A stretch of DNA of 64,000 bases from Eledone cirrhosa (lineage: Eukaryota), in assembly GCA_964016885.1 (NCBI GenBank), contig OZ024743.1, positions 23,312,001 through 23,376,000 on the forward strand. Reading direction: 5' to 3'. The notes under the pieces were generated by a model. That model was not told the DNA's origin. It ran no database searches and saw only the letters and a list, made by a program, of their open reading frames with translations. The translations under genes were made by a program, and so were the position numbers. Positions 9,605 through 44,868 of this stretch are shown here, piece by piece; position 1 is the first letter of the stretch, and every line of letters begins with the position of its first letter.

Positions 9605-9870
9605 CTAGTAAAACGAAAACCTAATCAATGAAAGTGTATCTGGAATTATAATTATGGCAGCTAAAATAGTGAAGAAAGCGATAGCTAATGCACCCATAGC
9701 TTGTGATGAAGGTCTGTTATCTGTGGCACTTATTTTCATGGCAATATACCTCGATGTTTCATTTAAATTTACAGTTAGTTCTTTTCGGGTCTTTTCCATT
9801 CGTTTTGCAAGATCTTGGGTTGATTCCACAAAACAAGGACATGGACATAAAGTTCCATTTTCAGAGGAAT
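9605..9870 (-). CDS. Last (or near-last) coding exon of the host gene: juxtamembrane region and TM helix of a single-pass mucin-stalk membrane protein
   Basis: Acceptor ttattcacag|AT (phase 1) at 9871-9872. Translation SSENGTLCPCPCFVESTQDLAKRMEKTRKELTVNLNETSRYIAMKISATDNRPSSQAMGALAIAFFTILAAIIIIPDTLSLIRFSFY*. The pattern CxC..(helix)..LxV..S...K.SA.D.R.SS..G-TM-D resembles, from recall, the C-terminus of uncharacterised molluscan WSC/mucin-like membrane proteins. Confidence 0.85.
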
Positions 9871-11928: not shown

Positions 11929-12406
11929 CAGTGGGGAAGGGTAACCTGGAAAGCAAAGCATGCAGTTCAATCGCCATGGCGGAAAGTGGGCTGTGCAGCC
12001 TTACCACCCCCCAAAAAATTCCCTCTAAATGACCCTCCCGGTCAAAGCCGCATGTAGTGTTATCTAGTGTGTTTGTGTGTGTTATCTTTTTATGAGTCTA
12101 CGAATTAGTAAGCAGTCAAAATTCTACTTTCTCCGAAGCTGTCGTGTGTTTGTGTGTATGTGTTTGTGTGTATGTGTTTGTGTGTATGTGTATGTGTTAT
12201 CTTTTTTTGTATCTATACGTTTTAGTAAGCAGCCAAAATTCTGCTTGCTTCAACCGACGCAATTGATCAACTCAAGATTCTATAACGCATGCACTGCATG
12301 CGTTGCATGCACGGACCCTTCACCCTTGATATATAGCTATCAAGTGTGTGTGTATGTACATATATATATATATAGCTATCTAGTGTATGTATCTAGTGTA
12401 TATATT

Positions 12407-14482
12407 GGAACAGCACAGTAGATAAGGCTATTAGAGACAAAAGACTAGCATGGAAGGCTTGGAAAAGGGGTGGGAGTAGGGAAGAATATACAGCCACTAA
12501 GAGAGAAGCTAGACGTCAGGTGTACTTAGCACGCAGGGAGGCAGAGAGTAGGAGGTTTGCCAATGTTCTGCGACGGGAAGATCAGAGGCGTGCGGTGTTC
12601 CACATTGCAAGGCAGTGTGTCAATGCAAATCAGGATGTTGTTGGAGATAAATGTGTCCGGGATGATGCCGGTGTACTTAGTGTCACGAATGATCAGAAAA
12701 AGGAGGCCTGGAAATGTCATTATTAGAGACTGATGAATGTGGAGAACGAATGGGAGAGAGAGAAATTACCCTTGGTGGATCCGACAGAGGGACCAGCTAT
12801 TGAGATTGACGAATATAGGGTCCAAGAGGCGATTAGGGAAATGAAAAATGGTAAGGCTGCCGGACCATCGTGAATAGTTGCTGAGATGCTGAAGGCATCA
12901 TGGGACGTAGGCACTAAACTGGTTGCACGCATCATCAATCAGGCTATATATGGTGGTGTCATACCCAAAGACTGGTGCAGCAGTATTCTCATAAATTGCT
13001 ACAAAGGTAAAGGGGATGCTTTGGAGAGGAGCAATTATAGGGGTATAAAACTGATAGATCAGGTTATGAAAGTGGCAGAAAGGATTTTAGCGCAACTAAT
13101 TAGAGAAAGGGTCAAACTAGATGAGATGCAGTTTGGTTTTGTGCCTGGGAAGAGTACAACAGATGCCCTCTTCTTGGTGAGACAATTGCAAGAGAGGTTC
13201 TTAGAGAAGAATAAGCCACTATACTTAGCCTTTGTTGACCTAGAGAAGGCCTTTGATAGGGTACCCCGATCTGTCATCTGGTGGTCCCTAAGGAAGCTAG
13301 GTGTTGAGGAATGGCTTGTGAGGACAGTGCAAACTTTGTACAGAGGTACTCTCAGTAAAGTCAGGGTAGGAATGGAGTTTAGTGAGGAATTCCAGATACA
13401 AGTAGGAGTACATCAGGGTTCGGTCCTCAGCCCGCTCTTGTTCATTATAGTCCTCCAAGCCATAACAGAGGAGTTTAAGACTGGCTGTCCATGGTAACTT
13501 CTCTACGCTGACGATCTGGTTCTTATAGCAGAATCAGTAGAGGAGCTAGAGAATAAATTCTGGCTATGGAAACAGCAGTTGGAAGCAAGAGGACTGAGAG
13601 TGAATCTAGCTAAGACAAAAGTGTTGATGAGTAGAAAAGTGGACAAAACCCTGATTCCGTCAGGGAAATGGCCATGTTCGATATGCAGAAAAGGAACTGG
13701 CATAAATTCTATAAAATGCACACAATGCAGATCCTGGGTACACAAGAGATGTAGCGGGATAGCAGGCAAACTAACAGGTAGAGAGAAATATGTATGCAGT
13801 AGATGTACAGGGAAATTAGACAGTAGAAGTCACACTGATAAACACATTTTACAAATGCTAGAGGGCGCTATAGAAGTGGTGGATAGCTTCCGGTACCTAG
13901 GAGATCAGATTAGCATGGGAGGAGGGTGTTCCGAGGCCATAGTATCTAGAATAAGGACGGGTTGGAAGAAGTTTAGGGAGCTGCTTCCTCTGTTAACGAA
14001 GAAGGGTTTCTCCCTGCGTACGAAAGGCCGGTTGTATGATGCCTGTGTGAGGAGCGCGATGCTGCATGGTAGTGAGACATGGGCAGCAACTGCAGAGGAT
14101 ATGCGACGGCTGAATAGAAATGAAGCAAGCATGCTCCGTTGGATGTTCAGTGTAAATGTGCGTGAACGACCCAACATAAATGTGTTGAGAGAGAAACTGT
14201 GTCTGAGAGGGATAGAATGTAGTGTACGGGAGAGGAGACTGAGGTGGTATGGACATGTGATGCGCATGGAGGATGACCGATGGGTGAAGAAGTGCCAGGA
14301 ATTGCCAGTTGAAGGAAGACGTGGTAGAGGTAGACCACGAAAAACATGGGCGGAGGTGGTGAGAACAGACCTCAGATCATTGAAAATCACGGTGGAGATG
14401 ACGAGGGACCGTGACGAGTGGAGAGATGCTGTGCTGAATAAGACCCGTCCCACCCTTGCAAGCAGGGAAAAGCGGACGTAAA

Positions 14483-14517
<35 letters not shown>
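12407..14517 (+). mobile_element. 5'-truncated RTE-group LINE (RT plus PHD-like finger) with in-frame stops
   Basis: RT motifs NYRGIKL, QFGFVPGKST, AFVDLEKAFD, GVHQGSVLSP, LYADD; C4HC3 finger; C-terminal GRPRKTW..DRDEW; (GAT)n tail. Confidence 0.93.
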
Positions 14518-14534
14518 ATCATGTATATATATAG

Positions 14535-16971: not shown

Positions 16972-17169
16972 TCTTTATATGTGAAGTTGACAATCCAGGC
17001 ATGGCTGTTTCTTTTGTTGTTATTCCTGTCATTGGTTTTGTTGTTGGTGGCACTGTCTTTGTTGCCATTCCTTTTTCCATCTTCTCTGTCTTTCTTGGTG
17101 TTGGTGTTGTTGTTGGTGTTGATATTGTTGTTGGTGGTGCTAATGAGGTTTCTGGGCTTTTTGTTGATA
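16972..17169 (-). CDS. Mucin (Thr/Pro-rich) exon copy 8, shortened; uses the inner acceptor
   Basis: Donor AAGA|gtatgt at 16971. The outer acceptor is deleted, but the in-phase ttatacag|TATCA acceptor remains. 198 nt, open frame STKSPETSLAPPTTISTPTTTPTPRKTEK...GLSTSHIK. Confidence 0.5.
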
Positions 17170-17818
17170 CTGTATAATTAGATGGTGAAGATTTCTTATT
17201 GGAACCACAAATAATTGAAGAATTCGCCATACACTTCAGAGGAATTTAATTCTTGAAAAGCTAAGAGAAATTGACCAAGAAATCATACATACTGTTTCAG
17301 TTGCCGAGGTAACATGCTGGCATAAAAACATGCGTAACATGTAGCATTAAATGATGAAAAATCTTCTAACATATTAGGACTATGTGACAGGATTATAAAG
17401 TCGTTAGAAATAGCAGCCAAAGACCGACTGGAAAAACTCAACAAATTAAGAAGTTGTTGAATATTAATCAAAGGTAAATTAGTCTCCCATACTTAAAAAT
17501 CGCCATACTCTTCAGTGCGTCTCTGAGAGATTCCTCTCATTGAGATTTTTAAGTATCATCATCATCATCATCATCGTTTTTTCCGTTTTACTGAACTGTA
17601 CAAGTTTTGGTGGTTACTACTTCTATACCTGAATGAAATAAATAACAGAAATACCTATATTTATTGTTTAATACAGGTATGGCCATTGTTGTGTGGTTAA
17701 AAGGGAGGCAGAGATACCATGTGGTTTTAGATTCGTTCAGGTGTCTTCTACTGTAGACTAGGGATGACCAATATCTTGTGAGTGAAATTTGGAAAAGGAA
17801 TATTATTAAATTACATAC

Positions 17819-18076
17819 TCTTTATATGTGAAGTTGACAATCCAGGCATGGCTGTTTCTTTTGTTGTTATTCCTGTCATTGGTTTTGTTGTTGGTGGCAC
17901 TGTCTCTGTTGCCATTCCTTTTTCCATCTTCTCTGTCTTTCTTGATGTTGGTGTTGTTGTTGGTGTTGATATTGTTGTTGGTGGTGCTGTAGTTGCTAGT
18001 ATTGTTGTTGGTGGTGCTATTGTTGCGGCTAATGAGGTTTCTGGGCTTTTTGTTGATACTGTATAATTAGCTTTGC
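17819..18076 (-). CDS. Mucin exon copy 7
   Basis: Acceptor ttttttaaacag|GC, donor A|gtatgt; 258 nt, phase 1-1, open Thr/Pro-rich frame. Confidence 0.65.
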
Positions 18077-18650
18077 CTGTTTAAAAAATAACATACCTTC
18101 AGATTGTTGTTGTAGATATTGTATATAATTCTGATAGAAAACAACTATGCTAAGACCAACTAATGTCTGAGGGCTGTTAAATTTTTCATACGAGGAAAAA
18201 TTCTTATTGGTACCACCAATAATTGGAGAATCCACCATACACTTCAGGGGAATTTAATTCTTCAGAAGCTAAAAGAATTTAACCAAGAAACCATACATAC
18301 TGTTCCATTTGCTGAGGCAGCATGCTGGAATAAAAACACACATGGCGTTACATGATCAAAAATCTCCTAACATATTAGGACCATGTGAGAGGCTTATAAT
18401 GTTGCTACATGTAGCAACCAAAGGACCCTCTGGTCCAAGTAGACACATTAAGGTGTAGTTTAATAATGATTAAAGGTTAATTAGTCCCTAATATTTAAAT
18501 ATCTCAATGAGAGGAATCTCTCAGAGAAGCAGTATTATATATTAAAATTAAGTGAGAAAAAACTCTCTTTATGGGAGTACAAACAAGATAGACAAAAACA
18601 TATTCTATCTAGACTTGCCTATATATATAGATCTCCCTACGATGGTTTCA

Positions 18651-19206
18651 ATCCATGGCAAAAAAGCCCAATCCATGGCAATATGAGCAGGTCGATCTGC
18701 CGGCAATATGAGCAGGTCGCTCTGCCGGCAAACGAGGGATGTGGCCCACGAACCGCCGTCTCCTTTTCCAGACAATGTCCCTAAACCTCTCCAATCCTGA
18801 CCTCCTCATCACTTCCTCGTTGCTAACTTGGTCTCTCCATGAAATTTTAAATATAGTCCGAATGCAACGACGGTGGAATACATCAAGCTTGTTACATACA
18901 CTTTCCGTACTCTTCCATGTCTCACAGGCATATATCGCTGTTGGTACTACAATGGACATGTAAACACGGAATTTAAGGGCGTTGCCAGTGGACCTGCTCA
19001 TATTGCCATGGATTGGGTACCAGAAGGTGGTAGGAGAGAATGGGGAAGACCACGAAAAACATGGCAGAGCACATTCAGGGAGGACCTGCGGGAGATGGGA
19101 ATTACCTGGAGAGGTGCTAGAAGGGCCGCCAGTGACAGGATCAGGTGGAGGAAGCTCATTGCGCAATGTTCCACAAGGGACTGGAGGAACTAAGACTAAG
19201 ACTAAG
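18651..19206 (+). mobile_element. 5'-truncated, 5'-inverted RTE-type LINE fragment (variant with extra junction duplications)
   Basis: Minus part encodes ...YACETW..FHRRCIRTIFKISWRDQVSNEEV; plus part encodes GRPRKTW...DRIRWRKL; (ACTAAG)3 tail; ~12-bp TSD accatggtttca. Confidence 0.85.
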
Positions 19207-20028
19207 ACCATGGTTTCATATGGGGAAGATTTCTTATTGGAACCACAAATAATTGAAGAATTCGCCATACACTTCAGGGGAATTTAATTCTTGAAAAGCT
19301 AAGAGAAATTGACCAAGAAATCATACATACTGTTTCATTTGCCGAGGTAACATGCTGGCATAAAAACATGCGTAATATGTAGCATTAAATGATGAAAAAT
19401 CTTCTAACATATTAGGACTATGTGATAGGATTATAAAGTCGTTAGAAATAGCAGCCAAAGACCGACTGGAAAAACTCAACAAATTAAGAAGTTGTTGAAT
19501 ATTAATCAAAGGTAAATTAGCCTCCCATACTTAAAAATCACCATACTCTTCAGTGCGTCTCTGAGAGATTCCTCTCATTGAGATTTTTAAGTATCATCAT
19601 CATCATCACAGTTTTTCCGTTTTATTGAAGATTATGGTGAATTCTTCAATTATTGGTGGTACCAATAAGAATTCTACCCCATATGAAACCACGGTAGGAA
19701 GATGTATATATAAGTGAGTTTAGATAGAACATTTTTTCCATTTCTGTCTTGTCTGAACTTCCTGAAACCCTGAAACCCTTCTTCTAATTCATACACTAAC
19801 CTATGCTATACATGTTTTGGTGGTTACTACTTCTATACCTGAATGAAATAAATAACAGAAATACCTATATTTATCGTTTAATACAGGTATGGCCATTGTT
19901 GTGTGGTTAAAAGGGAGGCAGAGATACCATGTGGCTTTAGATTCGTTCAGGTGTCTTCTACTGTAGACTAGGGATGACCAATATCTTGTGAGTGAAATTT
20001 GGAAAAGGAATATTATTAAATTACATAC

Positions 20029-20265
20029 TCTTTATATATGAAGTTGACAATCCAGGCATGGCTGTTTCTTTTGTTGTTATTCCTGTCATTGGTTTTGTTG
20101 TTGGTGGCACTGTCTCTGTTGTCATTCCTTTTTCCATCTTCTCTGTCTTTCTTGGTGTTGGTGTTGTTGGTGGTGCTGTAGTTGCTAGTATTGTTGTTGG
20201 TGGTGCTATTGTTGGGGCTAATGAGGTTTCTGGGCTTTTTGTTGATACTGTATAATTAGCTTTGC
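20029..20265 (-). CDS. Mucin exon copy 6
   Basis: Same splice sites; 237 nt (in-frame 21-nt deletion). Confidence 0.65.
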
Positions 20266-20838
20266 CTGTTTAAAAAAATAACATACCTTCAGATTGTTGT
20301 TGTAGATATTGTATATAATTCTGATAGAAAACAACTATGCTAAGACCAACTAATGTCTGAGGGCTGTTAAATTTTTCATACGAGGAAGAATTCTTATTGG
20401 AACCACCAATAATTGGAGAATCCACCATACACTTCAGGGGAATTTAATTCTTCAGAAGCTAAAAGAATTTAACCAAGAAACCATACATACTGTTCCATTT
20501 GCTGAGGCAGCATGCTGGAATAAAAACACACATGGCGTTACATGATAAAAAATCTCCTAACATATTAGGACCATGTGACAGGCTTATAATGTTGCTACAT
20601 GTAGCAACCAAAGGACCCTCTGGTCCAAGTAGACACATTAAGGTGTAGTTTAATAATGATTAAAGGTTAATTAGTCCCTAATATTTAAATATCTAAATGA
20701 GAGGAATCTCTCAGAGAAGCAATATTATATATTAAAATTAAGTGAGAAAAAACTCTCTTTATGGGAGTACAAACAAGATAGACAAAAACATATTCTATCT
20801 AGACTTGCCTATATATAGATCTCCCTACCATGGTTTCA

Positions 20839-21349
20839 ATCCATGGCAATATGAGCAGGTCGATCTGCCGGCAAACGAGGGATGTGGCCCACGAACCGCC
20901 GTCTCCTTTTCCAGACAATGTCCCTTAACCTCTCCAATCCTGACCTCCTCATCACTTCCTCGTTGCTAACTTGGTCTCTCCATGAAATTTTAAATATGGT
21001 CCGAATGCAACGACGGTGGAATACATCAAGCTTGTTACATACACTTTCCGTACTCTTCCATGTCTCACAGGCATATATCGCTGTTGGTACTACAATGGAC
21101 ATGTAAACACGGAATTTAAGGGCGTTGCCAGTGGACCTGCTCATATTGCCATGGATTGGGTACCAGAAGGTGGTAGGGGAGAATGGGGAAGACCACGAAA
21201 AACATGGCGGAGCACATTCAGGGAGGACCTGCGGGAGATGGGAATTACCTGGAGAGGTGCTAGAAGGGCCGCCAGTGACAGGATCAAGTGGAAGAAGCTC
21301 ATTGCGCAATGTTCCACAAGGGACTGGAGGAACTAAGACTAAGACTAAG
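20839..21349 (+). mobile_element. 5'-inverted RTE-type LINE fragment (array copy)
   Basis: Perfect TSD accatggtttca at 20827-20838 and 21350-21361; (ACTAAG)n tail. Confidence 0.85.
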
Positions 21350-22171
21350 ACCATGGTTTCATATGGGGAAGATTTCTTATTGGAACCACAAATAATTGAA
21401 GAATTCGCCATACACTTCAGGGGAATTTAATTCTTGAAAAGCTAAGAGAAATTGACCAAGAAATCATACATACTGTTTCATTTGCCGAGGTAACATGCTG
21501 GCATAAAAACATGCGTAATATGTAGCATTAAATGATGAAAAATCTTCTAACATATTAGGACTATGTGATAGGATTATAAAGTCGTTAGAAATAGCAGCCA
21601 AAGACCGACTGGAAAAACTCAACAAATTAAGAAGTTGTTGAATATTAATCAAAGGTAAATTAGCCTCCCATACTTAAAAATCACCATACTCTTCAGTGCG
21701 TCTCTGAGAGATTCCTCTCATTGAGATTTTTAAGTATCATCATCATCATCACAGTTTTTCCGTTTTATTGAAGATTATGGTGAATTCTTCAATTATTGGT
21801 GGTACCAATAAGAATTCTACCCCATATGAAACCACGGTAGGAAGATGTATATATAAGTGAGTTTAGATAGAACATTTTTTCCATTTCTGTCTTGTCTGAA
21901 CTTCCTGAAACCCTGAAACCCTTCTTCTAATTCATACACTAACCTATGCTATACATGTTTTGGTGGTTACTACTTCTATACCTGAATGAAATAAATAACA
22001 GAAATACCTATATTTATTGTTTAATACAGGTATGGCCATTGTTGTGTGGTTAAACGGTAGGCAGAGATACCATGTGGCTTTAGATTCGTTCAGGTGTCTT
22101 CTACGGTAGACTAGGGATGACCAATATCTTGTGAGTGAAATTTGGAAAAGGAATATTATTAAATTACATAC

Positions 22172-22429
22172 TCTTTATATGTGAAGTTGACAATCCAGGC
22201 ATGGCTGTTTCTTTTGTTGTTATTCCTGTCATTGGTTTTGTTGTTGGTGGCACTGTCTCTGTTGCCATTCCTTTTTCCATCTTCTCTGTCTTTCTTGGTG
22301 TTGGTGTTGTTGGTGGTGTTGATATTGTTGTTGGTGGTGTTGTAGTTGCTAGTATTGTTGTTGGTGGTGCTATTGTTGCGGCTAATGAGGTTTCTGGGCT
22401 TTTTGTTGATACTGTATAATTAGCTTTGC
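22172..22429 (-). CDS. Mucin exon copy 5
   Basis: Same splice sites; 258 nt, open frame. Confidence 0.65.
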
Positions 22430-23001
22430 CTGTTTAAAAAATAACATACCTTCAGATTGTTGTTGTAGATATTGTATATAATTCTGATAGAAAACAACTA
22501 TGCTAAGACCAACTAATGTCTGAGGGCTGTTAAATTTTTCATACGAGAAAAAATTCTTATTGGAACCACCAATAATTGGAGAATCCACCATACACTTCAG
22601 GGGAATTTAATTCTTCAGAAGCTAAAAGAATTTAACCAAGAAACCATACATACTGTTCCATTTGCTGAGGCAGCATGCTGGAATAAAAACACACATGGCG
22701 TTACATGATCAAAAATCTCCTAACATATTAGGACCATGTGACAGGCTTATAATGTTGCTACATGTAGCAACCAAAGGACCCTCTGGTCCAAGTAGACACA
22801 TTAAGGTGTAGTTTAATAATGATTAAAGGTTAATTAGTCCCTAATATTTAAATATCTAAATGAGAGGAATCTCTCAGAGAAGCAATATTTTATATTAAAA
22901 TTAAGTGAGAAAAAACTCTCTTTATGGGAGTACAAACAAGATAGACAAAAACATATTCTATCTAGACTTGCCTATATATAGATCTCCCTACCATGGTTTC
23001 A

Positions 23002-23512
23002 ATCCATGGCAATATGAGCAGGTCGATCTGCCGGCAAACGAGGGATGTGGCCCACGAACCGCCGTCTCCTTTTCCAGACAATGTCCCTTAACCTCTCCAA
23101 TCCTGACCTCCTCATCACTTCCTCGTTGCTAACTTGGTCTCTCCATGAAATTTTAAATATGGTCCGAATGCAACGACGGTGGAATACATCAAGCTTGTTA
23201 CATACACTTTCCGTACTCTTCCATGTCTCACAGGCATATATCGCTGTTGGTACTACAATGGACATGTAAACACGGAATTTAAGGGCGTTGCCAGTGGACC
23301 TGCTCATATTGCCATGGATTGGGTACCAGAAGGTGGTAGGAGAGAATGGGGAAGACCACGAAAAACATGGCAGAGCACATTCAGGGAGGACCTGCGGGAG
23401 ATGGGAATTACCTGGAGAGGTGCTAGAAGGGCCGCCAGTGACAGGATCAGGTGGAGGAAGCTCATTGCGCAATGTTCCACAAGGGACTGGAGGAACTAAG
23501 ACTAAGACTAAG
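23002..23512 (+). mobile_element. 5'-inverted RTE-type LINE fragment (array copy)
   Basis: Same structure as the copy at 20839. Confidence 0.85.
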
Positions 23513-24334
23513 ACCATGGTTTCATATGGGGAAGATTTCTTATTGGAACCACAAATAATTGAAGAATTCGCCATACACTTCAGGGGAATTTAATTCTTGA
23601 AAAGCTAAGAGAAATTGACCAAGAAATCATACATACTGTTTCATTTGCCGAGGTAACATGCTGGCATAAAAACATGCGTAATATGTAGCATTAAATGATG
23701 AAAAATCTTCTAACATATTAGGACTATGTGATAGGATTATAAAGTCGTTAGAAATAGCAGCCAAAGACCGACTGGAAAAACTCAACAAATTAAGAAGTTG
23801 TTGAATATTAATCAAAGGTAAATTAGCCTCCCATACTTAAAAATCACCATACTCTTCAGTGCGTCTCTGAGAGATTCCTCTCATTGAGATTTTTAAGTAT
23901 CATCATCATCATCACAGTTTTTCCGTTTTATTGAAGATTATGGTGAATTCTTCAATTATTGGTGGTACCAATAAGAATTCTACCCCATATGAAACCACGG
24001 TAGGAAGATGTATATATAAGTGAGTTTAGATAGAACATTTTTTCCATTTCTGTCTTGTCTGAACTTCCTGAAACCCTGAAACCCTTCTTCTAATTCATAC
24101 ACTAACCTATGCTATACATGTTTTGGTGGTTACTACTTCTATACCTGAATGAAATAAATAACAGAAATACCTATATTTATCGTTTAATACAGGTATGGCC
24201 ATTGTTGTGTGGTTAAAAGGGAGACAGAGATACCATGTGGCTTTAGATTCGTTCAGGTGTCTTCTACTGTAGACTAGGGCTGACCAATATCTTGTGAGTG
24301 AAATTTGGAAAAGGAATATTATTAAATTACATAC

Positions 24335-24592
24335 TCTTTATATGTGAAGTTGACAATCCAGGCATGGCTGTTTCTTTTGTTGTTATTCCTGTCATTGGTT
24401 TTGTTGTTGGTGGCACTGTCTCTGTTGCCATTCCTTTTTCCATCTTCTCTGTCTTTCTTGGTGTTGGTGTTGTTGGTGGTGTTGATATTGTTGTTGGTGG
24501 TGTTGTAGTTGCTAGTATTGTTGTTGGTGGTGCTATTGTTGCGGCTAATGAGGTTTCTGGGCTTTTTGTTGATACTGTATAATTAGCTTTGC
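24335..24592 (-). CDS. Mucin exon copy 4
   Basis: Same splice sites; 258 nt, open frame. Confidence 0.65.
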
Positions 24593-25164
24593 CTGTTTAA
24601 AAAATAACATACCTTCAGATTGTTATTGTAGATATTGTATATAATTCTGATAGAAAACAACTATGCTAAGACCAACTAATGTCTGAGGGCTGTTAAATTT
24701 TTCATACGAGGAAAAATTCTTATTGGAACCACCAATAATTGGAGAATCCACCATACACTTCAGGGGAATTTAATTCTTCAGAAGCTAAAAGAATTTAACC
24801 AAGAAACCATACATACTGTTCCATTTGCTGAGGCAGCATGCTGGAATAAAAACACACATGGCGTTACATGATCAAAAATCTCCTAACATATTAGGACCAT
24901 GTGACAGGCTTATAATGTTGCTACATGTAGCAACCAAAGGACCCTCTGGTCCAAGTAGACACATTAAGGTGTAGTTTAATAATGATTAAAGGTTAATTAG
25001 TCCCTAATATTTAAATATCTAAATGAGAGGAATCTCTCAGAGAAGCAATATTTTATATTAAAATTAAGTGAGAAAAAACTCTCTTTATGGGAGTACAAAC
25101 AAGATAGACAAAAACATATTCTATCTAGACTTGCCTATATATAGATCTCCCTACCATGGTTTCA

Positions 25165-25675
25165 ATCCATGGCAATATGAGCAGGTCGATCTGCCGGCAA
25201 ACGAGGGATGTGGCCCACGAACCGCCGTCTCCTTTTCCAGACAATGTCCCTTAACCTCTCCAATCCTGACCTCCTCATCACTTCCTCGTTGCTAACTTGG
25301 TCTCTCCATGAAATTTTAAATATGGTCCGAATGCAACGACGGTGGAATACATCAAGCTTGTTACATACACTTTCCGTACTCTTCCATGTCTCACAGGCAT
25401 ATATCGCTGTTGGTACTACAATGGACATGTAAACACGGAATTTAAGGGCGTTGCCAGTGGACCTGCTCATATTGCCATGGATTGGGTACCAGAAGGTGGT
25501 AGGAGAGAATGGGGAAGACCACGAAAAACATGGCAGAGCACATTCAGGGAGGACCTGCGGGAGATGGGAATTACCTGGAGAGGTGCTAGAAGGGCCGCCA
25601 GTGACAGGATCAGGTGGAGGAAGCTCATTGCGCAATGTTCCACAAGGGACTGGAGGAACTAAGACTAAGACTAAG
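25165..25675 (+). mobile_element. 5'-inverted RTE-type LINE fragment (array copy)
   Basis: Same structure as the copy at 20839. Confidence 0.85.
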
Positions 25676-26497
25676 ACCATGGTTTCATATGGGGAAGATT
25701 TCTTATTGGAACCACAAATAATTGAAGAATTCGCCATACACTTCAGGGGAATTTAATTCTTGAAAAGCTAAGAGAAATTGACCAAGAAATCATACATACT
25801 GTTTCATTTGCCGAGGTAACATGCTGGCATAAAAACATGCGTAATATGTAGCATTAAATGATGAAAAATCTTCTAACATATTAGGACTATGTGATAGGAT
25901 TATAAAGTCGTTAGAAATAGCAGCCAAAGACCGACTGGAAAAACTCAACAAATTAAGAAGTTGTTGAATATTAATCAAAGGTAAATTAGCCTCCCATACT
26001 TAAAAATCACCATACTCTTCAGTGCGTCTCTGAGAGATTCCTCTCATTGAGATTTTTAAGTATCATCATCATCATCACAGTTTTTCCGTTTTATTGAAGA
26101 TTATGGTGAATTCTTCAATTATTGGTGGTACCAATAAGAATTCTACCCCATATGAAACCACGGTAGGAAGATGTATATATAAGTGAGTTTAGATAGAACA
26201 TTTTTTCCATTTCTGTCTTGTCTGAACTTCCTGAAACCCTGAAACCCTTCTTCTAATTCATACACTAACCTATGCTATACATGTTTTGGTGGTTACTACT
26301 TCTATACCTGAATGAAATAAATAACAGAAATACCTATATTTATCGTTTAATACAGGTATGGCCATTGTTGTGTGGTTAAAAGGGAGACAGAGATACCATG
26401 TGGCTTTAGATTCGTTCAGGTGTCTTCTACTGTAGACTAGGGATGACCAATATCTTGTGAGTGAAATTTGGAAAAGGAATATTATTAAATTACATAC

Positions 26498-26755
26498 TCT
26501 TTATATGTGAAGTTGACAATCCAGGCATGGCTGTTTCTTTTGTTGTTATTCCTGTCATTGGTTTTGTTGTTGGTGGCACTGTCTCTGTTGCCATTCCTTT
26601 TTCCATCTTCTCTGTCTTTCTTGGTGTTGGTGTTGTTGGTGGTGTTGATATTGTTGTTGGTGGTGTTGTAGTTGCTAGTATTGTTGTTGGTGGTGCTATT
26701 GTTGCGGCTAATGAGGTTTCTGGGCTTTTTGTTGATACTGTATAATTAGCTTTGC
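26498..26755 (-). CDS. Mucin exon copy 3
   Basis: Same splice sites; 258 nt, open frame. Confidence 0.65.
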
Positions 26756-27329
26756 CTGTTTAAAAAATAACATACCTTCAGATTGTTGTTGTAGATATTG
26801 TATATAATTCTGATAGAAAACAACTATGCTAAGACCAACTAATGTCTGAGGGCTGTTAAATTTTTCATACGAGGAAAAATTCTTATTGGAACCACCAATA
26901 ATTGGAGAATCCACCATACACTTCAGGGGAATTTAATTCTTCAGAAGCTAAAAGAATTTAACCAAGAAACCATACATACTGTTCCATTTGCTGAGGCAGC
27001 ATGCTGGAATAAAAACACACATGGCGTTACATGATCAAAAATCTCCTAACATATTAGGACCATGTGACAGGCTTATAATGTTGCTACATGTAGCAACCAA
27101 AGGACCCTCTGGTCCAAGTAGACACATTAAGGTGTAGTTTAATAATGATTAAAGGTTAATTAGTCCCTAATATTTAAATATCTCAATGAGAGGAATCTCT
27201 CAGAGAAGCAATATTATATATTAAAATTAAGTGAGAAAAAACTCTCTTTATGGGAGTACAAACAAGATAGACAAAAACATATTCTATCTAGACTTGCCTA
27301 TATATATAGATCTCCCTACCACGGTTTCA

Positions 27330-27885
27330 ATCCATGGCAAAAAAGCCCAATCCATGGCAATATGAGCAGGTCGATCTGCCGGCAATATGAGCAGGTCGCT
27401 CTGCCGGCAAACGAGGGATGTGGCCCACGAACCGCCGTCTCCTTTTCCAGACAATGTCCCTTAACCTCTCCAATCCTGACCTCCTCATCACTTCCTCGTT
27501 GCTAACTTGGTCTCTCCATGAAATTTTAAATATAGTCCGAATGCAACGACGGTGGAATACATCAAGCTTGTTACATACACTTTCCGTACTCTTCCATGTC
27601 TCACAGGCATATATCGCTGTTGGTACTACAATGGACATGTAAACACGGAATTTAAGGGCGTTGCCAGTGGACCTGCTCATATTGCCATGGATTGGGTACC
27701 AGAAGGTGGTAGGAGAGAATGGGGAAGACCACGAAAAACATGGCAGAGCACATTCAGGGAGGACCTGCGGGAGATGGGAATTACCTGGAGAGGTGCTAGA
27801 AGGGCCGCCAGTGACAGGATCAAGTGGAGGAAGCTCATTGCGCAATGTTCCACAAGGGACTGGAGGAACTAAGACTAAGACTAAG
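27330..27885 (+). mobile_element. 5'-inverted RTE-type LINE fragment (variant with extra junction duplications)
   Basis: Same structure as the copy at 18651. Confidence 0.85.
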
Positions 27886-28708
27886 ACCATGGTTTCATAT
27901 GGGGAAGATTTCTTATTGGAACCACAAATAATTGAAGAATTCGCCATACACTTCAGGGGAATTTAATTCTTGAAAAGCTAAGAGAAATTGACCAAGAAAT
28001 CATACATACTGTTTCATTTGCCGAGGTAACATGCTGGCATAAAAACATGCGTAACATGTAGCATTAAATGATGAAAAATCTTCTAACATATTAGGACTAT
28101 GTGATAGGATTATAAAGTCGTTAGAAATAGCAGCCAAAGACCGACTGGAAAAACTCAACAAATTAAGAAGTTGTTGAATATTAATCAAAGGTAAATTAGC
28201 CTCCCATACTTAAAAATCACCATACTCTTCAGTGCGTCTCTGAGAGATTCCTCTCATTGAGATTTTTAAGTATCATCATCATCATCACAGTTTTTCCGTT
28301 TTATTGAAGATTATGGTGAATTCTTCAATTATTGGTGGTACCAATAAGAATTCTACCCCATATGAAACCACGGTAGGAAGATGTATATATAAGTGAGTTT
28401 AGATAGAACATTTTTTCCATTTCTGTCTTGTCTGAACTTCCTGAAACCCTGAAACCCTTCTTCTAATTCATACACTAACCCTATGCTGTACATGCTTTGG
28501 TGGTTACTACTTCTATACCTGAATGAAATAAATAACAGAAATACCTATATTTATCGTTTAATACAGGTATGGCCATTGTTGTGTGGTTAAAAGGGAGACA
28601 GAGATACCATGTGGCTTTAGATTCGTTCAGGTGTCTTCTACTGTAGACTAGGGATGACCAATATCTTGTGAGTGAAATTTGGAAAAGGAATATTATTAAA
28701 TTACATAC

Positions 28709-28945
28709 TCTTTATATATGAAGTTGACAATCCAGGCATGGCTGTTTCTTTTGTTGTTATTCCTGTCATTGGTTTTGTTGTTGGTGGCACTGTCTCTGTT
28801 GTCATTCCTTTTTCCATCTTCTCTGTCTTTCTTGGTGTTGGTGTTGTTGGTGGTGCTGTAGTTGCTAGTATTGTTGTTGGTGGTGCTATTGTTGGGGCTA
28901 ATGAGGTTTCTGGGCTTTTTGTTGATACTGTATAATTAGCTTTGC
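28709..28945 (-). CDS. Mucin exon copy 2
   Basis: Same splice sites; 237 nt, matches the copy at 20029. Confidence 0.65.
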
Positions 28946-29517
28946 CTGTTTAAAAAATAACATACCTTCAGATTGTTGTTGTAGATATTGTATATAATTC
29001 TGATAGAAAACAACTATGCTAAGACCAACTAATGTCTGAGGGCTGTTAAATTTTTCATACGAGGAAGAATTCTTATTGGAACCACCAATAATTGGAGAAT
29101 CCACCATACACTTCAGGGGAATTTAATTCTTCAGAAGCTAAAAGAATTTAACCAAGAAACCATACATACTGTTCCATTTGCTGAGGTAGCATGCTGGAAT
29201 AAAAACACACATGGCGTTACATGATAAAAAATCTCCTAACATATTAGGACCATGTGACAGGCTTATAATGTTGCTACATGTAGCAACCAAAGGACCCTCT
29301 GGTCCAAGTAGACACATTAAGGTGTAGTTTAATAATGATTAAAGGTTAATTAGTCCCTAATATTTAAATATCTAAATGAGAGGAATCTCTCAGAGAAGCA
29401 ATATTATATATTAAAATTAAGTGAGAAAAAACTCTCTTTATGGGAGTACAAACAAGATAGACAAAAACATATTCTATCTAGACTTGCCTATATATAGATC
29501 TCCCTACCATGGTTTCA

Positions 29518-30028
29518 ATCCATGGCAATATGAGCAGGTCGATCTGCCGGCAAACGAGGGATGTGGCCCACGAACCGCCGTCTCCTTTTCCAGACAATGT
29601 CCCTTAACCTCTCCAATCCTGACCTCCTCATCACTTCCTCGTTGCTAACTTGGTCTCTCCATGAAATTTTAAATATGGTCCGAATGCAACGACGGTGGAA
29701 TACATCAAGCTTGTTACATACACTTTCCGTACTCTTCCATGTCTCACAGGCATATATCGCTGTTGGTACTACAATGGACATGTAAACACGGAATTTAAGG
29801 GCGTTGCCAGTGGACCTGCTCATATTGCCATGGATTGGGTACCAGAAGGTGGTAGGAGAGAATGGGGAAGACCACGAAAAACATGGCGGAGCACATTCAG
29901 GGAGGACCTGCGGAAGATTGGAATTACCTGGAGAGGTGCTAGAAGGGCCGCCAGTGACAGGATCAAGTGGAGGAAGCTCATTGCGCAATGTTCCACAAGG
30001 GACTGGAGGAACTAAGACTAAGACTAAG
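29518..30028 (+). mobile_element. 5'-inverted RTE-type LINE fragment (array copy)
   Basis: Same structure as the copy at 20839. Confidence 0.85.
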
Positions 30029-30851
30029 ACCATGGTTTCATATGGGGAAGATTTCTTATTGGAACCACAAATAATTGAAGAATTCGCCATACACTTCAGG
30101 GGAATTTAATTCTTGAAAAGCTAAGAGAAATTGACCAAGAAATCATACATACTGTTTCATTTGCCGAGGTAACATGCTGGCATAAAAACATGCGTAACAT
30201 GTAGCATTAAATGATGAAAAATCTTCTAACATATTAGGACTATGTGATAGGATTATAAAGTCGTTAGAAATAGCAGCCAAAGACCGACTGGAAAAACTCA
30301 ACAAATTAAGAAGTTGTTGAATATTAATCAAAGGTAAATTAGCCTCCCATACTTAAAAATCGCCATACTCTTCAGTGCTTCGCTGAGAGATTCCTCTCAT
30401 TGAGATTTTTAAGTATCATCATCATCATCATCACAGTTTTCCGTTTTATTGAAGAGTATGGTGAATTCTTCAATTATTGGTGGTACCAATAAGAATTCTA
30501 CCCCATATGAAACCACGGTAGGAAGATGTATATATAAGTGAGTTTAGATAGAATATTTTTTTCATTTCTGTCTTGTTTGAACTTCCTGAAACCCTGAAAC
30601 CCTTCTTCTAATTTATACACTAACCTATGCTGTACATGTTTTGGTGGTTACTATTTCTATACCTGAATGAAATAAATAACAGAAATACCTATATTTATCG
30701 TTTAATACAGTATGGCCATTGTTGTGTGGTTAAAAGGGAGACAGAGATACCATGTGGCTTTAGATTCGTTCAGGTGTCTTCTACTGTAGACTAGGGATGA
30801 CCAATATCTTGTGAGTGAAATTTGGAAAAGGAATATTATTAAATTACATAC

Positions 30852-31103
30852 TCTTTATATGTGGAGTTGACAATCCAGGTATGGCTGTTTCTTCTGTTGT
30901 TATTCCTGTCATTGGTTTTGTTGTTGGTGGCACTGTCTCTGTTGCCATTCCTTTTTCTATCTTCCCTCTCTTTGTTGGTGTTGGTGTTGGTGATGATATT
31001 GTTGTTGGTGGTGCTGTTCTTGCTAATATTTTTGTTGGTCGTGCTGTTGCTGGAGCTAATGGTGTTTCTGGGCTTTTTGTTGATACTGTATAATTAGCTT
31101 TGC
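30852..31103 (-). CDS. Mucin exon copy 1 (most divergent; adjacent to the unique upstream exon)
   Basis: 252 nt, phase 1-1: (C)KANYTVSTKSPETPLAPATARPTKILARTAPPTTISSPTPTPTKRGKIEKGMATETVPPTTKPMTGITTEETAIPGLSTPHIK. Confidence 0.75.
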
Positions 31104-31230
31104 CTGTTTAAAAAACAACATACCTTCAGATTGTTGTTGTGTTTATTGTATATAATTCTGATAGAAAATAAATTTCCTGCCAAATATGCTAAGACCAATG
31201 AATGTCTGAGGACTATTAAATTTTTCATAC

Positions 31231-31284
31231 AAAACGAATTAATATTGACTGTTAAGTTTTTAGTAAAATTTCCTTGATTGGTAC
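31231..31284 (-). CDS. Host gene internal exon (54 nt)
   Basis: Strong acceptor tttttttctttttag|GT, donor T|gtatga; phase 1-1; (C)TNQGNFTKNLTVNINSF(C). Confidence 0.7.
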
Positions 31285-34112: not shown

Positions 34113-34790
34113 AGTGGTGGTGATGGTGGTGGCGGTGGTGGTGGCGGTGGCAGTGGCAGTGCTGGTGGTGGTGGTGGTGATGGCAGGGCTGGTGGTGGTA
34201 GTGGTGGCAGTGGCAGTGCTGGTGGTGGTGGTGGCAGGGCTGGTTTTGGTAGTGGTGGTGGTGTGTGCTGGTGGTGGTGGCGGCAGTGGCAGTGCTGGTG
34301 GTGGTGGTGCTGGTGGTGCTGGTGCTGGTAGTGGTGGTGGTAGTGGCAGTGCTGGTGGTGGTGGTGGTGGTGGTGGTGATGGCAGTGGTGGTGGTGATGG
34401 CAGGGCTGGTAGTGGTGGTGGTGGTGGTGGTGATGGCAGTGGCAGTGGTGGTGGTGGTGGTGATGGCAGTGCTGGTGGTGGCAGTGGTTGTGGTGGTGGT
34501 GGTGGTGGTGGTGCTGGTGGTGGTGGTGGTGGTGGTGGTGGTGGTGGTGGTGGTGGTGGTGGTGGTGGTGGTGGTGGTGGTGATGGCAGTGCTGGTGGTG
34601 GTGGTGGCAGGGCTGGTGGTGGTGGTGGCGGCGGTGGCAGTGCTGGTGGTGGTGGCGGCAGTGGCAGTGCTGGTGGTGGTGGTGGCAGTGGCAGTGCTAG
34701 TGGTGGTGGTGGTGGTGGCGGTGGTGGCAGTGCTGGTGGTGGTGGTGGTGGCGGCAGTGACAGTGCTGGTGGTGTTGGTTGTGATGATGG
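34113..34790. repeat. Degenerate (GGT)n/GGCAGT microsatellite in an intron
   Basis: Direct inspection. Confidence 0.95.
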
Positions 34791-35148
34791 TAAGAATGAT
34801 AATGATGTGGAGAACATCGTGGTTGAAGTGGGTGGTGATGATGACAAAGATGATGATTTTAGTAATGGTGGTGATGGTAATGATGAGGAAATGTAGGAGG
34901 AGATAAGGATGATGATAGAAAGGTGGAAAACAAAAAGGAGAATGACGATGGCCATAGGGATGATGACGATGATGGTGTTGGTAGCAATTGCTGTGATATC
35001 AGTAGTGATGATGATGATGTGTGATGTGCTTAAAAACGGTCAACCTTTCGGACATTTAAAGTAACTATAGAAACTTATATAATTGCCTATGAATTACTTT
35101 TGGAATAAAGTTTGGTATCACAATGTTTGTTTGTTTATATATAGATAT

Positions 35149-37773
35149 ATGCTAGCAGGGGATTTCAATCGTCATGTCGGACAGGATGGTTACACTGGGG
35201 TACATAGTGGCCACAGTTACAGCTCAAGATATGAAGGAGTGAGGCTTCTTGAATTTTGTGATGCAAGTGCACTAACCATTTGCAACACTAACTTCCAGAA
35301 ACCTGCCAACCACCTAATAACCTACAAATCAGGTGAGCACATAAGCCAGATTGACTTCCTGTTAGTTAGGCAGCAAGATAGACAGATGGTGTCAAATACC
35401 AAGACATACCCCATGGAAGAATGTACCCCCACAGCATAGGTTAGTCGTTAGTGATATCTCACTAAGGTAGAGACAGAATGAGACATACAGGAAGGTGTGG
35501 AAAAGAAAGGTTTGGAAGCTAAAATACCTTTCACTAAAATATTAAGGTGTGTATGACAAAAAAGAAGATGATTTAAAGTCGTATGACATAAATGATAATG
35601 GGAATTTCTTAACTGACAACTTACTGCAGGCTACTGAAGAAACTTGTGGCTGGAGCAGAGCTCCAACCAGACAGAGAGTGACCTGGTGGTGGAACAGCAC
35701 GGTAGATAGGGCCATTAGAGACAAAAGACTAGCATGGAATGCTTGGAAAAATGGTGGGAGTAGAGAAGGATATACAGCCGCTAAGAGAGAAGCTAGACGT
35801 CAGGTGTACTTAGCACGCAGGGAGGCTGAGAGTAGGAGGTTTGCCAATGTTCTGCGACGGGAAGATCAGAGATGTGCAATGTTCCGCATTGCAAAGCAGT
35901 GTGTCAGTGCAAATCAGAACGTTGTTGGAGATAAGTGTGTCCGGAATGATGTTGGTGTACTTAGTGTCATGAATGATCAGAAAAAGGAGGCCTGGAAATG
36001 ACATTATGATGAATGCGGAGAACGAATGGGAGAGAGAGAAATTACCCCCAGTAGATCCGACAGAGGGACCAGCTATTGAGATTGACGACAAATATAGGAT
36101 CCAAGAGGCGATTAAGGAAATGAAAAATGGTAAAGCCGCTGGACCTTCGAGGATAGTTGCTGAGATGCTGAAGGCATCAGGGGACGTGGGAACTAAACTG
36201 GTTGCACGCATCATCAATCAGGCTATATATGGCGGTATCATACCCAAAGACTGGTGCAGCAGTATTCTCATAAATTACTACAAAGGTAAAGGGGATGCTC
36301 TGGAGAGGAGCAATTATAGGGGCATGAAACTGATGGATCAGGTTATGAAAGTGGCAGAAAGGATATTAGCGCAACTAATTAGAGAAAGGGTCAAACTAGA
36401 TGAGATGCAGTTTGGGAAAAGTACAACAGATGCCCTCTTCTTAGTAAGACAACTACAAGAGAGGTTCTTAGAGAAGAATAAGCCACTATACGTAGCCTTT
36501 GTTGACCTAGAGAAGGCCTTTGATAGGGTACCCCGATCTGTCATCTGGTGGTCCCTAAGGAAACTAGGTGTTGAGGAATGGCTTGTGAGGTCAGTGCAAG
36601 CTTTGTACAGAGGTGCTGTCAGTAAAGTCAGGGTAGAAATGGAGTTTAATGAGGAATTCCAGATACAAGTAGGAGTACATGAGGGTTCGCTCCTCAGCCC
36701 GCTCTTGTTCATTATAGTCCTCCAAGCCATAACAGAGGAGTTTAAGACTGGTTGTCCATGGGAACTTCTCTATGCTGACCATCTGGTTCTTACAGCAGAA
36801 TCAGTAGAGGAGCTAGAGAATAAATTCTGGCTATGGAAACAGCAGTTGGAATTAAGAGGACTGAGAGCTAAGACAAAAGTGTTGATGAGTAGAAAAGAGG
36901 ACAAAACTCTGATTCCATCAGGGAAATGGCCATGTTCGATATGCAGAAAAGGAACTGGCATAAATTCTATAAAATGTACACAATGCAGATCTTGGGTACA
37001 CAAGAGATGTAGTGGGATAGCAGGCAAACTAGCAGGTAGGTAAAAATACGTATGCAGTAGATGTACAAGGAAATTTGACAGTTGAAATCACATTGATAGA
37101 CACATTTTACAAATGCAGGTGGGTTCTATAGAAGTGGTTGATAGCATCTGGTACCTAGGTGATCAGATTAGCATGGGAGGGGGTGTTCCGAGGCCATAGT
37201 ATCTAGAATAAGGATGGGTTGGAAGAAGTTTTGGGAGCAGCTTTCTCTGCTGACGAAGAAGGGTTTCTCCCTGCATACAAAAGGCTGGTTATATGATGCC
37301 TGTGTGAGGTGCGCGATATTGCATGGTAGTGAAACATGGGAAGTAACTGCAGAGGATATGCGACGGCTGGAGAGAAATGAGGCAAGCATGCTCCGTTGGA
37401 TGTGCAATATCAATGTGCGTGAACGACCCAGCATGAATGTGTTGAGAGAGAAACTGTGTCTGAGAGGGATAGAATGTAGTGTGCGGGAGATAAGACTGCG
37501 ATGGTATGGACATGTGATGCGCATGGAGGATGACTGCTGGGTAAAGAAGTGCCAAGAAATGCCATTTGAAGGAAGACGTAGTCGAGGAAGACCACGAAAA
37601 ACATGGGCGGAGGTGGTGAGAGTAGACCTCAGATCGCTGAAGCTGATGGTGGAGATGACGAAGGACCATGATAAGTGGAGAGATGCTGTGCTGAATAGGA
37701 CATATCCCACCCTTGCAAACAGAGAAAAGCGGACGTAAAATGATGATGATGATGATGATGATGTTTATGATGA
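35149..37773 (+). mobile_element. Degenerate RTE-group LINE (APE endonuclease remnant, RT, PHD-like finger); same family as 12407
   Basis: AGDFN..IDFLLV endonuclease motifs; RT nearly identical to 12886-13497 (YADH in place of YADD); frameshifts; (GAT)n tail. Confidence 0.93.
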
Positions 37774-38165
37774 TATATATCTATATATATGTCCTGAATG
37801 AGCAAGACATGATCAGCTGACCTAGCATTGCCCACAACAGGACAACTCGTCTAACCCATGCTTGCATAGAAAATGGACATAAAACAGTGATGATGATGAT
37901 GATATATATATATATATATATAAACAAACAAACAAACATATATATATATACATAAGTTTATCCAGGGTTGAATCAGGGGTAACCACAGTAAGTAAGGTAC
38001 TCAATACATGGCAGAGTATAAATATTTAATATAGAAATGGCTTCTACAGAACTGTTTCATTCAGCAGAAATCATCGGGGCTTCCTGATGATTTCTCCTGA
38101 ATGAAACAGTTCTAGTCATGTAGAAGTCATTTCTATATTAGATATATATATATATATATATATAT

Positions 38166-42600: not shown

Positions 42601-44868
42601 TCTCCTTGTGCAGTGAAGATGTGTTTGCAAAGACACTACTTTATTCTGAAGTGCCAACATATTACACATGGAATACATCAACGAAAAAGCTTAAACGTCG
42701 CAAACAGGGTAAAGTAGTTGAAGGACATCCCAATTTATATTCGACCGACGCGTTAGGCCGTTTGTACACTGTTCACCCAAATAATGCAGAATGCTTTTAC
42801 TTGCGATTATTGTTAATCAACGTACGTGGACCGACATCATTCCAAGGATTGAGAACAGTAAACGGTCAAGTCTGTGCCACTTATCGTGAAGCTTGCCAAA
42901 AATTAAATCTTCTTGAAAATGATGGACATTGGGACACTTCACTCGCTGATGCATCGAATACTGCTCGACCACAGCAAATACGCACGTTATTCGCAATAAT
43001 ATTGACAACGTGCTTCCCATCAAATCCAAAAGATCTTTGGGAAAAATACAAAGACTACACGAGTGAAGACATCCTACATCGTTTGCGTGCAACAAATCAA
43101 AATCTGAATATTCAATTCACACCAATCGTGTATAATGAAGCATTGGTTTCGATTGAGGTCATATGTTTAGCAATCGCTAACAAAACACTGGTACAATTGG
43201 GAATGCCTGCGCCGAATCGATCTGTAAACGACATTTTCGATCGTGATTTGCAACGAGAAACAAACTTTGATGTCGCCGAATTGGGTACATTTGTTCAAAC
43301 GAATCTTCTGAAATTGGTACCAGAACAACGCATAGTATATGACAAAATTATGCAGGCAATTACAAATCAAAGCGGCGGATTGTATTTTATAGATGCGCCC
43401 GGTGGTACAGGCAAAACTTTTCTCATTTCACTTATTTTGGCAACTATACGATCACAAAATAATATTGCACTGGCAATCGCATCATCTGGAATTGCGGCAA
43501 CTCTTTTGGATAGTTGCCGAACTGCACATTCAGCACTGAAATTGTCATTGAATATGCAAATCACTGAGACACCAACATGCAATATCACCAAAAATTCTGG
43601 TATAGGTAAAGTACTCCAATCATGTCAAATCATTATATGGGACGAATGTACTATGGCGCACAAAAAATCATTGGAAGCGCTTAATAACACACTAAAAGAT
43701 TTGAAAGGAAATGAACAGCTCTTCGGTGGCACACTCATTTTATTGTCTGGTGATTTTCGACAAACTCTACCAGTTATACCGCGATCAACACCTGCTGATG
43801 AGCTTAATGCATGTCTCAAATCATCAGTTTTATGGCGACACGTACAGAAATTAACTTTAAAAACCAATATGCGTGTACAACTACAAAATGATGCATCCGC
43901 TGAACGTTTCACAAAACAATTGCTGGATATTGGGAATGGGAAAATAGTAATCGATGATCTCCACAAAATGTATGACATTGCCAACAAACTTCTGTAGAAT
44001 CACGGCAACCAGAGACGAACTGATTCACAAAGTTTTCCCAAATATCGCGCAGCATTACAAAATTCATCAGTGGCTCAATGCACGTGCTATATTAGCAGCC
44101 AAAAACAACGATGTCAATGCCATTAATTTCAGCATTCAAAACAAAATACCAGGCGAAGCGACAACGTATAAGTCCATCGATACTGTAATGAATCAAGACG
44201 AAATTATCAATTATCCAACTGAATTCTTGAATTCACTTGATTTGCCAGGCATGCCACCGCACATTTTAACATTGAAAATTGGCGTGCCTATCATCCTTCT
44301 CCGAAACATCAATCCACCACAACTTTGCAACGGTACCAGGCTTTCAGTGAAAAAGATGATGAACAATATCATCGAAGCTACAATTTTAAATGGAAAATTA
44401 AAAGAAGATGTACTGTTGCCACGCATCCCAATGATTCCGACAGATACGCCATTCGAATTCAAACGTTTGCAGTTTCCGGTGCGACTCGCCTTTGCAATGA
44501 CTATCAACAAAGCACAAGGACAATCGCTACAAGTGTGTGGACTAAATTTAGAAAATCCATGCTTCTCACATGGACAGCTGTATGTGGCTTGCTCACGCGT
44601 CGGTAAACCTTCTGATTTATTCGTGTACGCACCAGAAGGAAAAACAAAAAACATTGTGTATCCAAAAGCACTTCAGTAAAATAAATTAAATGTTCTTATA
44701 ACGAGTTTTCTTTAAATTCATCAGTCATTCAGTCATTTAAAGATAAATGTTAAGATCTAAAAAATAGAAACTAAATTAGAGAAGTTTTTAAATAACGATT
44801 AAAATTTTAATATTATTGTTTTCTAAATAAGCTTTTTAACACCGAGTGAAGCCGGGTAGCTCCGCTAG
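39619..44868 (+). mobile_element. Helitron with frameshifted Rep/PIF1-helicase ORF
   Basis: A|TC 5' end; STPR-like repeats SETDEQREARL; Zn finger CGYCGAL..MCC; HUH LPHAHILIW; Y2 motif YICKYINKG; Walker A DAPGGTGKT, IIWDECTM, GDFRQ, FAMTINKAQGQ, HGQLYVACSRV; 3' hairpin ccgagtgaagccggg then CTAG|T at 44865-44868; three frameshifts (~41.67, ~42.16, ~43.96 kb). Confidence 0.95.

Follow-up and report, generated by a model that had tools for sequence, protein, structure and literature searches.

The window analysed here is a stretch of 64,000 nucleotides from Eledone cirrhosa (G000:C4:23312001-23376000), and unprefixed positions below are window positions. Its minus strand carries a gene, P1, in which an exon for a Thr/Pro-rich stalk occurs eight times in tandem together with its intron; two tandem paralogs, P2 and P3, lie 100 and 170 kb away. 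The gene model was built by comparison with these paralogs and comprises a signal-peptide exon, exons A, A2, B, C and U, the stalk copies and a terminal exon. All 15 modelled exons join in frame without a stop, with AG/GT at each internal boundary, and the predicted length is 276 amino acids (aa) without the stalk, approximately 860 aa with seven stalk copies and 928 aa with eight. The product is predicted to be a mollusc-type membrane-anchored glycoprotein with a signal peptide, a head, a Thr/Pro stalk and a C-terminal hydrophobic anchor module.

The seven full stalk exons, all on the minus strand and with phase 1-1, are copy 1 (30852-31103, 252 nt), copy 2 (28709-28945, 237 nt), copy 3 (26498-26755, 258 nt), copy 4 (24335-24592, 258 nt), copy 5 (22172-22429, 258 nt), copy 6 (20029-20265, 237 nt) and copy 7 (17819-18076, 258 nt). 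Each is entered at its higher coordinate through the acceptor ttt(t)aaacag/GC and left at its lower coordinate through the donor A/gtatgt (slashes mark exon boundaries). Copies 2 and 6 are identical, as are copies 3, 4 and 5; copy 1, at the edge of the array, is the most diverged, with 23-24 substitutions relative to copies 2-7, and copy 7 is the final one to keep the usual acceptor. The units run head to tail with acceptor-to-acceptor spacings of 2158, 2190, 2163, 2163, 2164 and 2189 bp. In the truncated copy 8 (16972-17169, minus strand; donor at 16972), a deletion has removed the usual acceptor; inner in-phase AGs at 17169 and 17151 would give exons of 198 and 180 nt, but the pyrimidine tract is poor and copy 8 is doubtful as a working exon. 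Together the eight copies encode 652 aa (Thr 28%, Pro 15%, Lys 10%, Ser 7%), and Thr, Ser and Pro account for 47-54% of the residues in the stalk exons.

An earlier sequence-only reading had given the exon lengths, the phase 1-1, the open frames and one NYT sequon in each of the seven full copies, and all of these were reproduced. Its description of a shortened last copy with only an inner in-phase acceptor was borne out, and its estimate of a stalk of 84-650 aa is arithmetically sound. It had placed the array between exon U (31231-31284, phase 1) and the terminal exon that begins at 9870, and both exons are phase-compatible with the stalk copies. We also observed a 34-nt AG..GT segment at 31124-31157, and at the equivalent site in copies 2-7, with a good acceptor and an AG/GTATGT end 20 nt upstream of the stalk acceptor. 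Its sequence is similar to the beginning of the stalk exon, but the segment is frame-asymmetric and has a stop in phase 1; it may be a relic or a poison exon and was treated as a relic.

The three genes differ in the number of stalk copies: eight in P1, two in P2 and one in P3. P2 (terminal exon C4:23420749-23421014), positioned between P1 and P3, has two stalk exons, 288 and 258 nt long, and P3 (C4:23492908-23493173) has a single diverged Thr-rich stalk exon of 525 nt with the same phase 1-1 and a similar splice context. Because the single P3 exon already has phase 1-1, the symmetry is older than the array. Exon U was not found in P3. P2 is 99.2-100% identical to P1 at five 5' exons, and its terminal exon is 99.2% identical to that of P3 versus 95.5% to that of P1. 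Along P2 (G000:C4:23420749-23481288), the 5' exons are P1-like and the terminal exon and 3' flank are P3-like, with the switch in the intron that follows the final stalk copy. From this pattern, P2 is probably a hybrid produced by unequal crossover between P3 and P1.

The intron parts of the P1 units differ by 0.16-1.63% in all 15 pairs (98.4-99.8% identity), so the repetition is not due to chance. Intron variants are shared by I2 and I6 (five sites), I1 and I5 (three sites) and I3 and I4 (one site), a grouping that suggests exchanges with offsets of four units and of one unit. Across units 2-6, the variable sites number 4 of 237 in the exon and 28 of 1905 in the intron (Fisher p=0.77); the exons are no better conserved than the introns in this comparison, which the sequence-only reading had proposed as a check. 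In the gap-free parts of nine copies, the residue is changed in 11 of 14 variable codons. Random single changes create a stop in the stalk exon in 4.2% of cases, and a stop-free set has a probability of 0.43-0.65 at 10-20 substitutions. As the copies are young and their phase is inherited, stop-free frames of a multiple of 3 are uninformative about exon use. The earlier reading of a mucin-like stalk stands for the repetition of whole exon-plus-intron units in an anchored protein gene, now with copy numbers of 8/2/1 among the paralogs; the ladder of lengths through cassette splicing that it inferred is a possible reading only.

The equal variation of exons and introns, the frequent residue changes and the fair chance of a stop-free outcome all suit the explanation that the additional copies arose recently as a neutral accident, with P1 weakly expressed or using one or two copies and P2 and P3 as the working genes. 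The missing acceptor of copy 8 and the large transposon insertions in the P1 introns point the same way. On the other hand, the 15 modelled P1 exons are all open with canonical sites, and the full copies have splice sites that agree with those of the P2 copies found in the RNA-like contigs described below. An 83-nt contig from that run also ends at two copy-variable sites, where one allele is P1-only in this assembly, although this is only a hint from another individual. We consider such a passenger array improbable.

The near-identity of the units also raises the question of assembly, since three of the stalk exons do not differ at all and two exons are 100% identical between P1 and P2; the array could have been over-expanded, or P1 and P2 could be two haplotypes assembled in tandem. 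In the DNA runs X1-X3, which come from one sample that is possibly the assembly's own, a contig crosses the unit junction (from 31230 back to 29061), with 176 letters on its short side in X3. The depths of this contig were 47.9, 51.4 and 41.8, compared with 7.4, 6.8 and 7.8 for a flank contig whose words are single-copy within a 264-kb region. The ratio of 5.4-7.6 agrees better with the prediction of 6.1 for seven full copies plus P2 than with that of 3.5 for four, but it is rough, as depth is not copy number and P2 also holds one such junction. Depth cannot separate homozygous paralogs from two haplotypes; however, private and shared variants form a mosaic across the units, and the 3' part of P2 follows P3 rather than P1. 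The sequence-only reading had named an assembly artefact as a refuting condition; short-read contigs bridge the junction at about the predicted depth, so over-expansion of the array is unlikely, and we regard an artefact of either kind as very unlikely.

Splicing was assessed in X4, a run of a second sample. The run search listed four runs without a recorded kind and none as RNA, and X4 is read as RNA solely from its GT..AG joint. X4 was compared with the part of P2 that contains one stalk copy and the terminal exon. In one contig, 1070 bases bounded by GT..AG are missing, and the gap runs precisely from the donor of the stalk exon to the acceptor of the terminal exon at P2 coordinates; a second contig, which covers the terminal exon with its 3' region, ends at the acceptor. 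A contig of 102 nt agrees with P2 copy 1 at six of six differences, and the sequence of the 83-nt contig is shared by both P2 copies and P1 copies 2-7. The joint and the stalk contigs indicate that the stalk exon type is real and is spliced in the gene cluster.

Other properties of X4 were not counted as evidence. The X4 joints listed include no copy-to-copy or U-to-copy joint, and X4 has no P1-type terminal-exon contig, but contigs drop rare variants and near-identical copies collapse. The share of P1 words in X4 (0.36) fits words that P1 has in common with P2/P3 (0.34-0.41). The depths (29.8 for the 83-nt stalk contig, 13.2 for the joint, 12.3 for the terminal exon and 3.7 for the P2 copy 1 contig) are compatible with several models and were not used. 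Low-depth X4 contigs extend approximately 100 bases beyond the stalk donor (L015:5979-6084), where read-through meets a stop after two codons; this may possibly reflect a secreted form or unspliced RNA.

We favour, with moderate confidence, the explanation that the array consists of real, very young exon-plus-intron units, likely generated by repeated unequal crossing-over, that the seven full copies are likely spliced as a chain, and that DNA copy number is the main determinant of stalk length. At the outset, one phase 1-1 stalk exon of the kind seen in P3 would have been duplicated with its intron, leaving the junction at which the end of a miniature inverted-repeat transposable element (MITE) meets the exon U donor. 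The mosaic of variants suggests that stepwise amplification of the second copy followed. Acceptor and donor are unchanged among the full copies, and cluster RNA shows use of this donor at the paralog coordinates; because their splice sites are identical to ones in use, the seven full copies would be included by default. Full inclusion would yield a protein of approximately 860 aa rather than approximately 360 aa, in which an O-glycosylated spacer of approximately 590 aa would raise the head domain off the cell surface.

Several points weigh against this explanation. Chained inclusion of copies 2-7 is inferred from identical splice sites, and the splice joint itself comes from a single contig, whose short side spans 21 letters, in a run of unrecorded kind. 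The joint is not assignable to P1 rather than P2, the first 74 terminal-exon bases being alike in both, and the X4 terminal-exon contig has P3 alleles. In the P1-specific part of the terminal exon, P1 and P2 differ at 22 places over 679 bases. The donor-like AG/GTATGT lying 20 nt before the acceptor of every full copy could weaken that acceptor, and the inverted transposon ends around copies 2-6 could favour skipping. Purifying selection on the copies is not evident, and the long stalk may therefore be neutral. Finally, the copy-number differences are between paralogs only, and the DNA runs are from one sample.

The inverted transposon ends belong to a MITE-like element (30029-30519) with terminal inverted repeats of approximately 70 bp, A (30450-30519) and B (30029-30098), which is present in each full unit. 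A partial second copy (29053-29372) precedes copies 2-7 and carries an orphan inverted end, B' (29053-29115), approximately 110-170 nt upstream of the next stalk acceptor; the unit junction is B' joined to the exon U donor. Relatives of the MITE are dispersed on many other contigs at approximately 80%. A piece of approximately 520 bp (29517-30029, minus strand) is found in the full P1 introns and is absent from P2; it has no Pfam match, and we take its translation to resemble the end of an open reading frame of a non-LTR (long terminal repeat) retrotransposon.

Only copies 2-6 are flanked both by B' upstream (110-170 nt) and by A downstream (335-400 nt); copies 1, 7 and 8 and the P2 copies are not. 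This arrangement bears on a cassette model in which copies 2-6 are variably skipped within one animal, giving a ladder of stalk lengths, with B'-A pairing that loops out or circularises the exon as the likely driver. The B'-A duplex is predicted at -80.7 kcal/mol, and folding the RNA as far as A gives 56 expected pairs; every copy is phase 1-1, which is necessary but not sufficient for skipping. Variants in repeat number within individuals are reported for SmPoMuc in the available text of one study (PMC2576457), and polymorphism of FIM-C.1 through alternative splicing in the available text of another (PMC7177656). However, the second end of the MITE itself, B, is transcribed 350 nt later and allows a local A-B hairpin (predicted -92.9 kcal/mol) to displace B'-A pairing (61.7 vs 0 expected pairs). 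Moreover, the symmetry is ancestral and common to exons A, A2 and U, and the MITE elements were passively copied along with the unit. We consider variable skipping possible but unlikely. Kinetic loop-out of copies through B'-A pairing is possible according to these folding models. A stronger form, in which the copied transposon remnant made copies 2-6 stochastic cassettes and pairing during transcription would loop out any run of copies, giving stalks of approximately 170-590 aa per allele and perhaps circular RNAs, is a speculation that we rate as even less probable than the passenger array.

The remaining exons of the preferred gene model, in which the array is spliced as a chain, define the rest of the protein. 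The signal-peptide exon (G000:C4:23396064-23396121, 20 kb upstream of the window) encodes 19 hydrophobic residues and was judged by eye from its sequence and a homolog. On the minus strand of the window follow exon A (56300-56353, 54 nt, phase 1-1, AG/GT; conserved at 100% in P2 and 80% in P3), which resembles the start of O. bimaculoides XP_014791218.1; exon A2 (53270-53395, 126 nt, phase 1-1), with three Cys; exon B (51034-51188, 155 nt, phase 1-0), with head-domain sequence and two N-glycosylation sequons; and exon C (49266-49383, 118 nt, phase 0-1), which ends the head domain and is 42% identical to the O. bimaculoides homolog (E 5e-5). Exon U (54 nt, minus strand, phase 1-1) has two sequons, and the repeat starts exactly at its donor; its P2 copy matches XP_052822666.1 weakly (E 4.5). 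The terminal exon (9605-9870, minus strand) encodes CxCxC, an SAxDxRxSS motif and a hydrophobic segment of 19 aa, followed by 12 residues to the stop. With only 12 residues after it, a signalling tail is lacking, and the hydrophobic segment may be a glycosylphosphatidylinositol (GPI) signal.

Classical vertebrate transmembrane mucins (MUC1/4/16) are characterised by a signalling tail in the cytoplasm together with SEA or NIDO-AMOP-vWD domains. Unlike these, the octopus gene has only the 12 terminal residues, and SEA, NIDO, AMOP and vWD gave no Pfam match in five exon products or in the O. bimaculoides homolog. A Pfam scan of the five exon products gave no match at the cutoff, so that the head fits no Pfam family, and word-index protein searches matched 0 of 65 and 0 of 102 candidates. 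Two identities proposed for the head were rejected. A discoidin (F5/8 type C) head had an hhalign probability of 0.5% over 18 columns against six discoidin-headed relatives, with no Pfam match, and for an ETX/MTX2-like head the Atlas matches of the homolog head reached 0.90 with 126-136 of 256 features, below the bar of 170.

The terminal exon has relatives in 250 proteins at E<=0.001 (best 9e-29). Atlas neighbours of the terminal module scored 0.91-0.94, with Mollusca as the commonest group, and in the eight clusters looked up the named members are all molluscan (Octopus, oysters, scallop, mussels, abalone). These proteins form an unnamed molluscan family in which the same CxCxC / SAxDxRxSS / hydrophobic module follows a Thr/Ser/Pro stalk, and the gene shares its layout of signal peptide, head, stalk and module. 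A scan of the 82 longer proteins among 150 listed matches detected known extracellular heads in 35, with C-type lectin (10), F5/8 type C (6) and Sushi (6) the commonest, as well as IgGFc-binding, WSC, PAN, EGF and Ig domains; the head of the octopus gene, unlike these, matches no Pfam family. By analogy, the lectin-type heads in relatives suggest a role of the product in surface recognition or adhesion.

The closest relatives are O. bimaculoides XP_052822666.1 (automatically named 'integumentary mucin C.1-like') and XP_014791218.1, with 64% identity in the terminal module. The O. bimaculoides homologs have matching signal peptide, A, A2, B and C segments, and their Thr-rich stalk ends in a similar junction. 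Compared as protein models, they have a single non-repeated stalk of approximately 130 aa, unlike the Eledone array. Two of the homolog models (P0002 and P0153) differ in that a U-like segment before the stalk is present in one and absent from the other. In a scan of seven further family loci, duplication of the stalk exon was followed up at a single gene, a distant member on C5 (G000:C5:104190950-104193570). This member has three phase 1-1 Ser/Thr/Pro stalk exons of 69-72 nt in units of approximately 1 kb that are 91-98% alike, the third exon having been read by eye. The C5 gene indicates that exon duplication is a recurring route to a longer stalk.

Other features of the window were recorded as separate observations. 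The plus strand at 39700-44900 holds an element in the intron between C and U, with internal repeats of 69, 330 and 399 bp and no P2 match at the same place; it is presumably Helitron-like, judging from a resemblance to Rep/helicase-type sequence. Two pieces resembling a long interspersed nuclear element (12406-14532 and 35690-37790) are 91% identical and lie antisense to the gene in separate introns. A GTG-type repeat of 680 bp (34114-34791) is open as poly-Thr or poly-Pro on the gene's strand and was considered as an exon, but it has no acceptor and was rejected as a microsatellite; it is also found in P2. A tandem duplication at 62888-64000, whose copies are spaced 707 bp apart and agree at 99.5% over 406 bases, runs off the window end.

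The P1/P2/P3 locus illustrates stalk lengthening in progress, with one, two and eight copies in addition to the putative crossover hybrid and the C5 member. It also offers a clean test case for whether fresh symmetric exon duplicates are included by default or alternatively. If loop-out were true, the duplication would have supplied its own splicing switch; without it, the locus adds a good further case of an established mechanism, in a family of molluscan surface proteins that has received little study. Literature searches, with subscription journals outside their coverage, found no paper on the octopus gene or its exact arrangement.

Comparable systems are known in other animals. CD45 exons 4-6 and the Ser/Thr/Pro (STP) exons of CD46 are cassette-spliced parts of O-glycosylated stalks. 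In these and in chicken MUC2, a stalk or mucin domain is spread over several exons, as in the octopus gene, and splice variants have been demonstrated. The available text on chicken MUC2 describes ten cassettes over exons 32-44 and one in-frame splice variant (PMC3549977). As far as the available text of PMC6314250 goes, kringle IV type 2 of LPA is a 5.6-kb copy-number unit with more than 40 isoforms, and it resembles the octopus array in being an intragenic unit of kilobase scale whose copy number, in LPA, sets protein length. LPA differs in that the unit encodes a folded kringle of a secreted protein with established population variation, whereas the octopus unit is 2.16 kb and encodes a Thr/Pro spacer (PMC6314250, in part). 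Its likeness, and that of SmPoMuc, lies in how the system works, not in homology.

The sequence-only reading had contrasted the repetition of exon-plus-intron units with classical mucins, in which repeats vary within one exon. The contrast is real but not new, as the available text of PMC2576457 describes such a precedent in SmPoMuc of Schistosoma mansoni and cites SOWgp and spider silk genes as further exon-plus-intron repeats. In SmPoMuc, a 27-bp exon and its introns are repeated in units of approximately 1 kb with >93% identity, from 1 to approximately 20 per gene. As in the octopus gene, a mucin repeat exon is repeated with its flanking introns, the introns are highly similar, and tandem paralogs differ in unit number. 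According to the same partial source (PMC2576457), the SmPoMuc exons of 27 nt lie near the N-terminus of signal-peptide proteins and transcripts with variable repeats are documented, whereas the octopus exon measures 237-258 nt and encodes stalk sequence of a protein predicted to be membrane-anchored.

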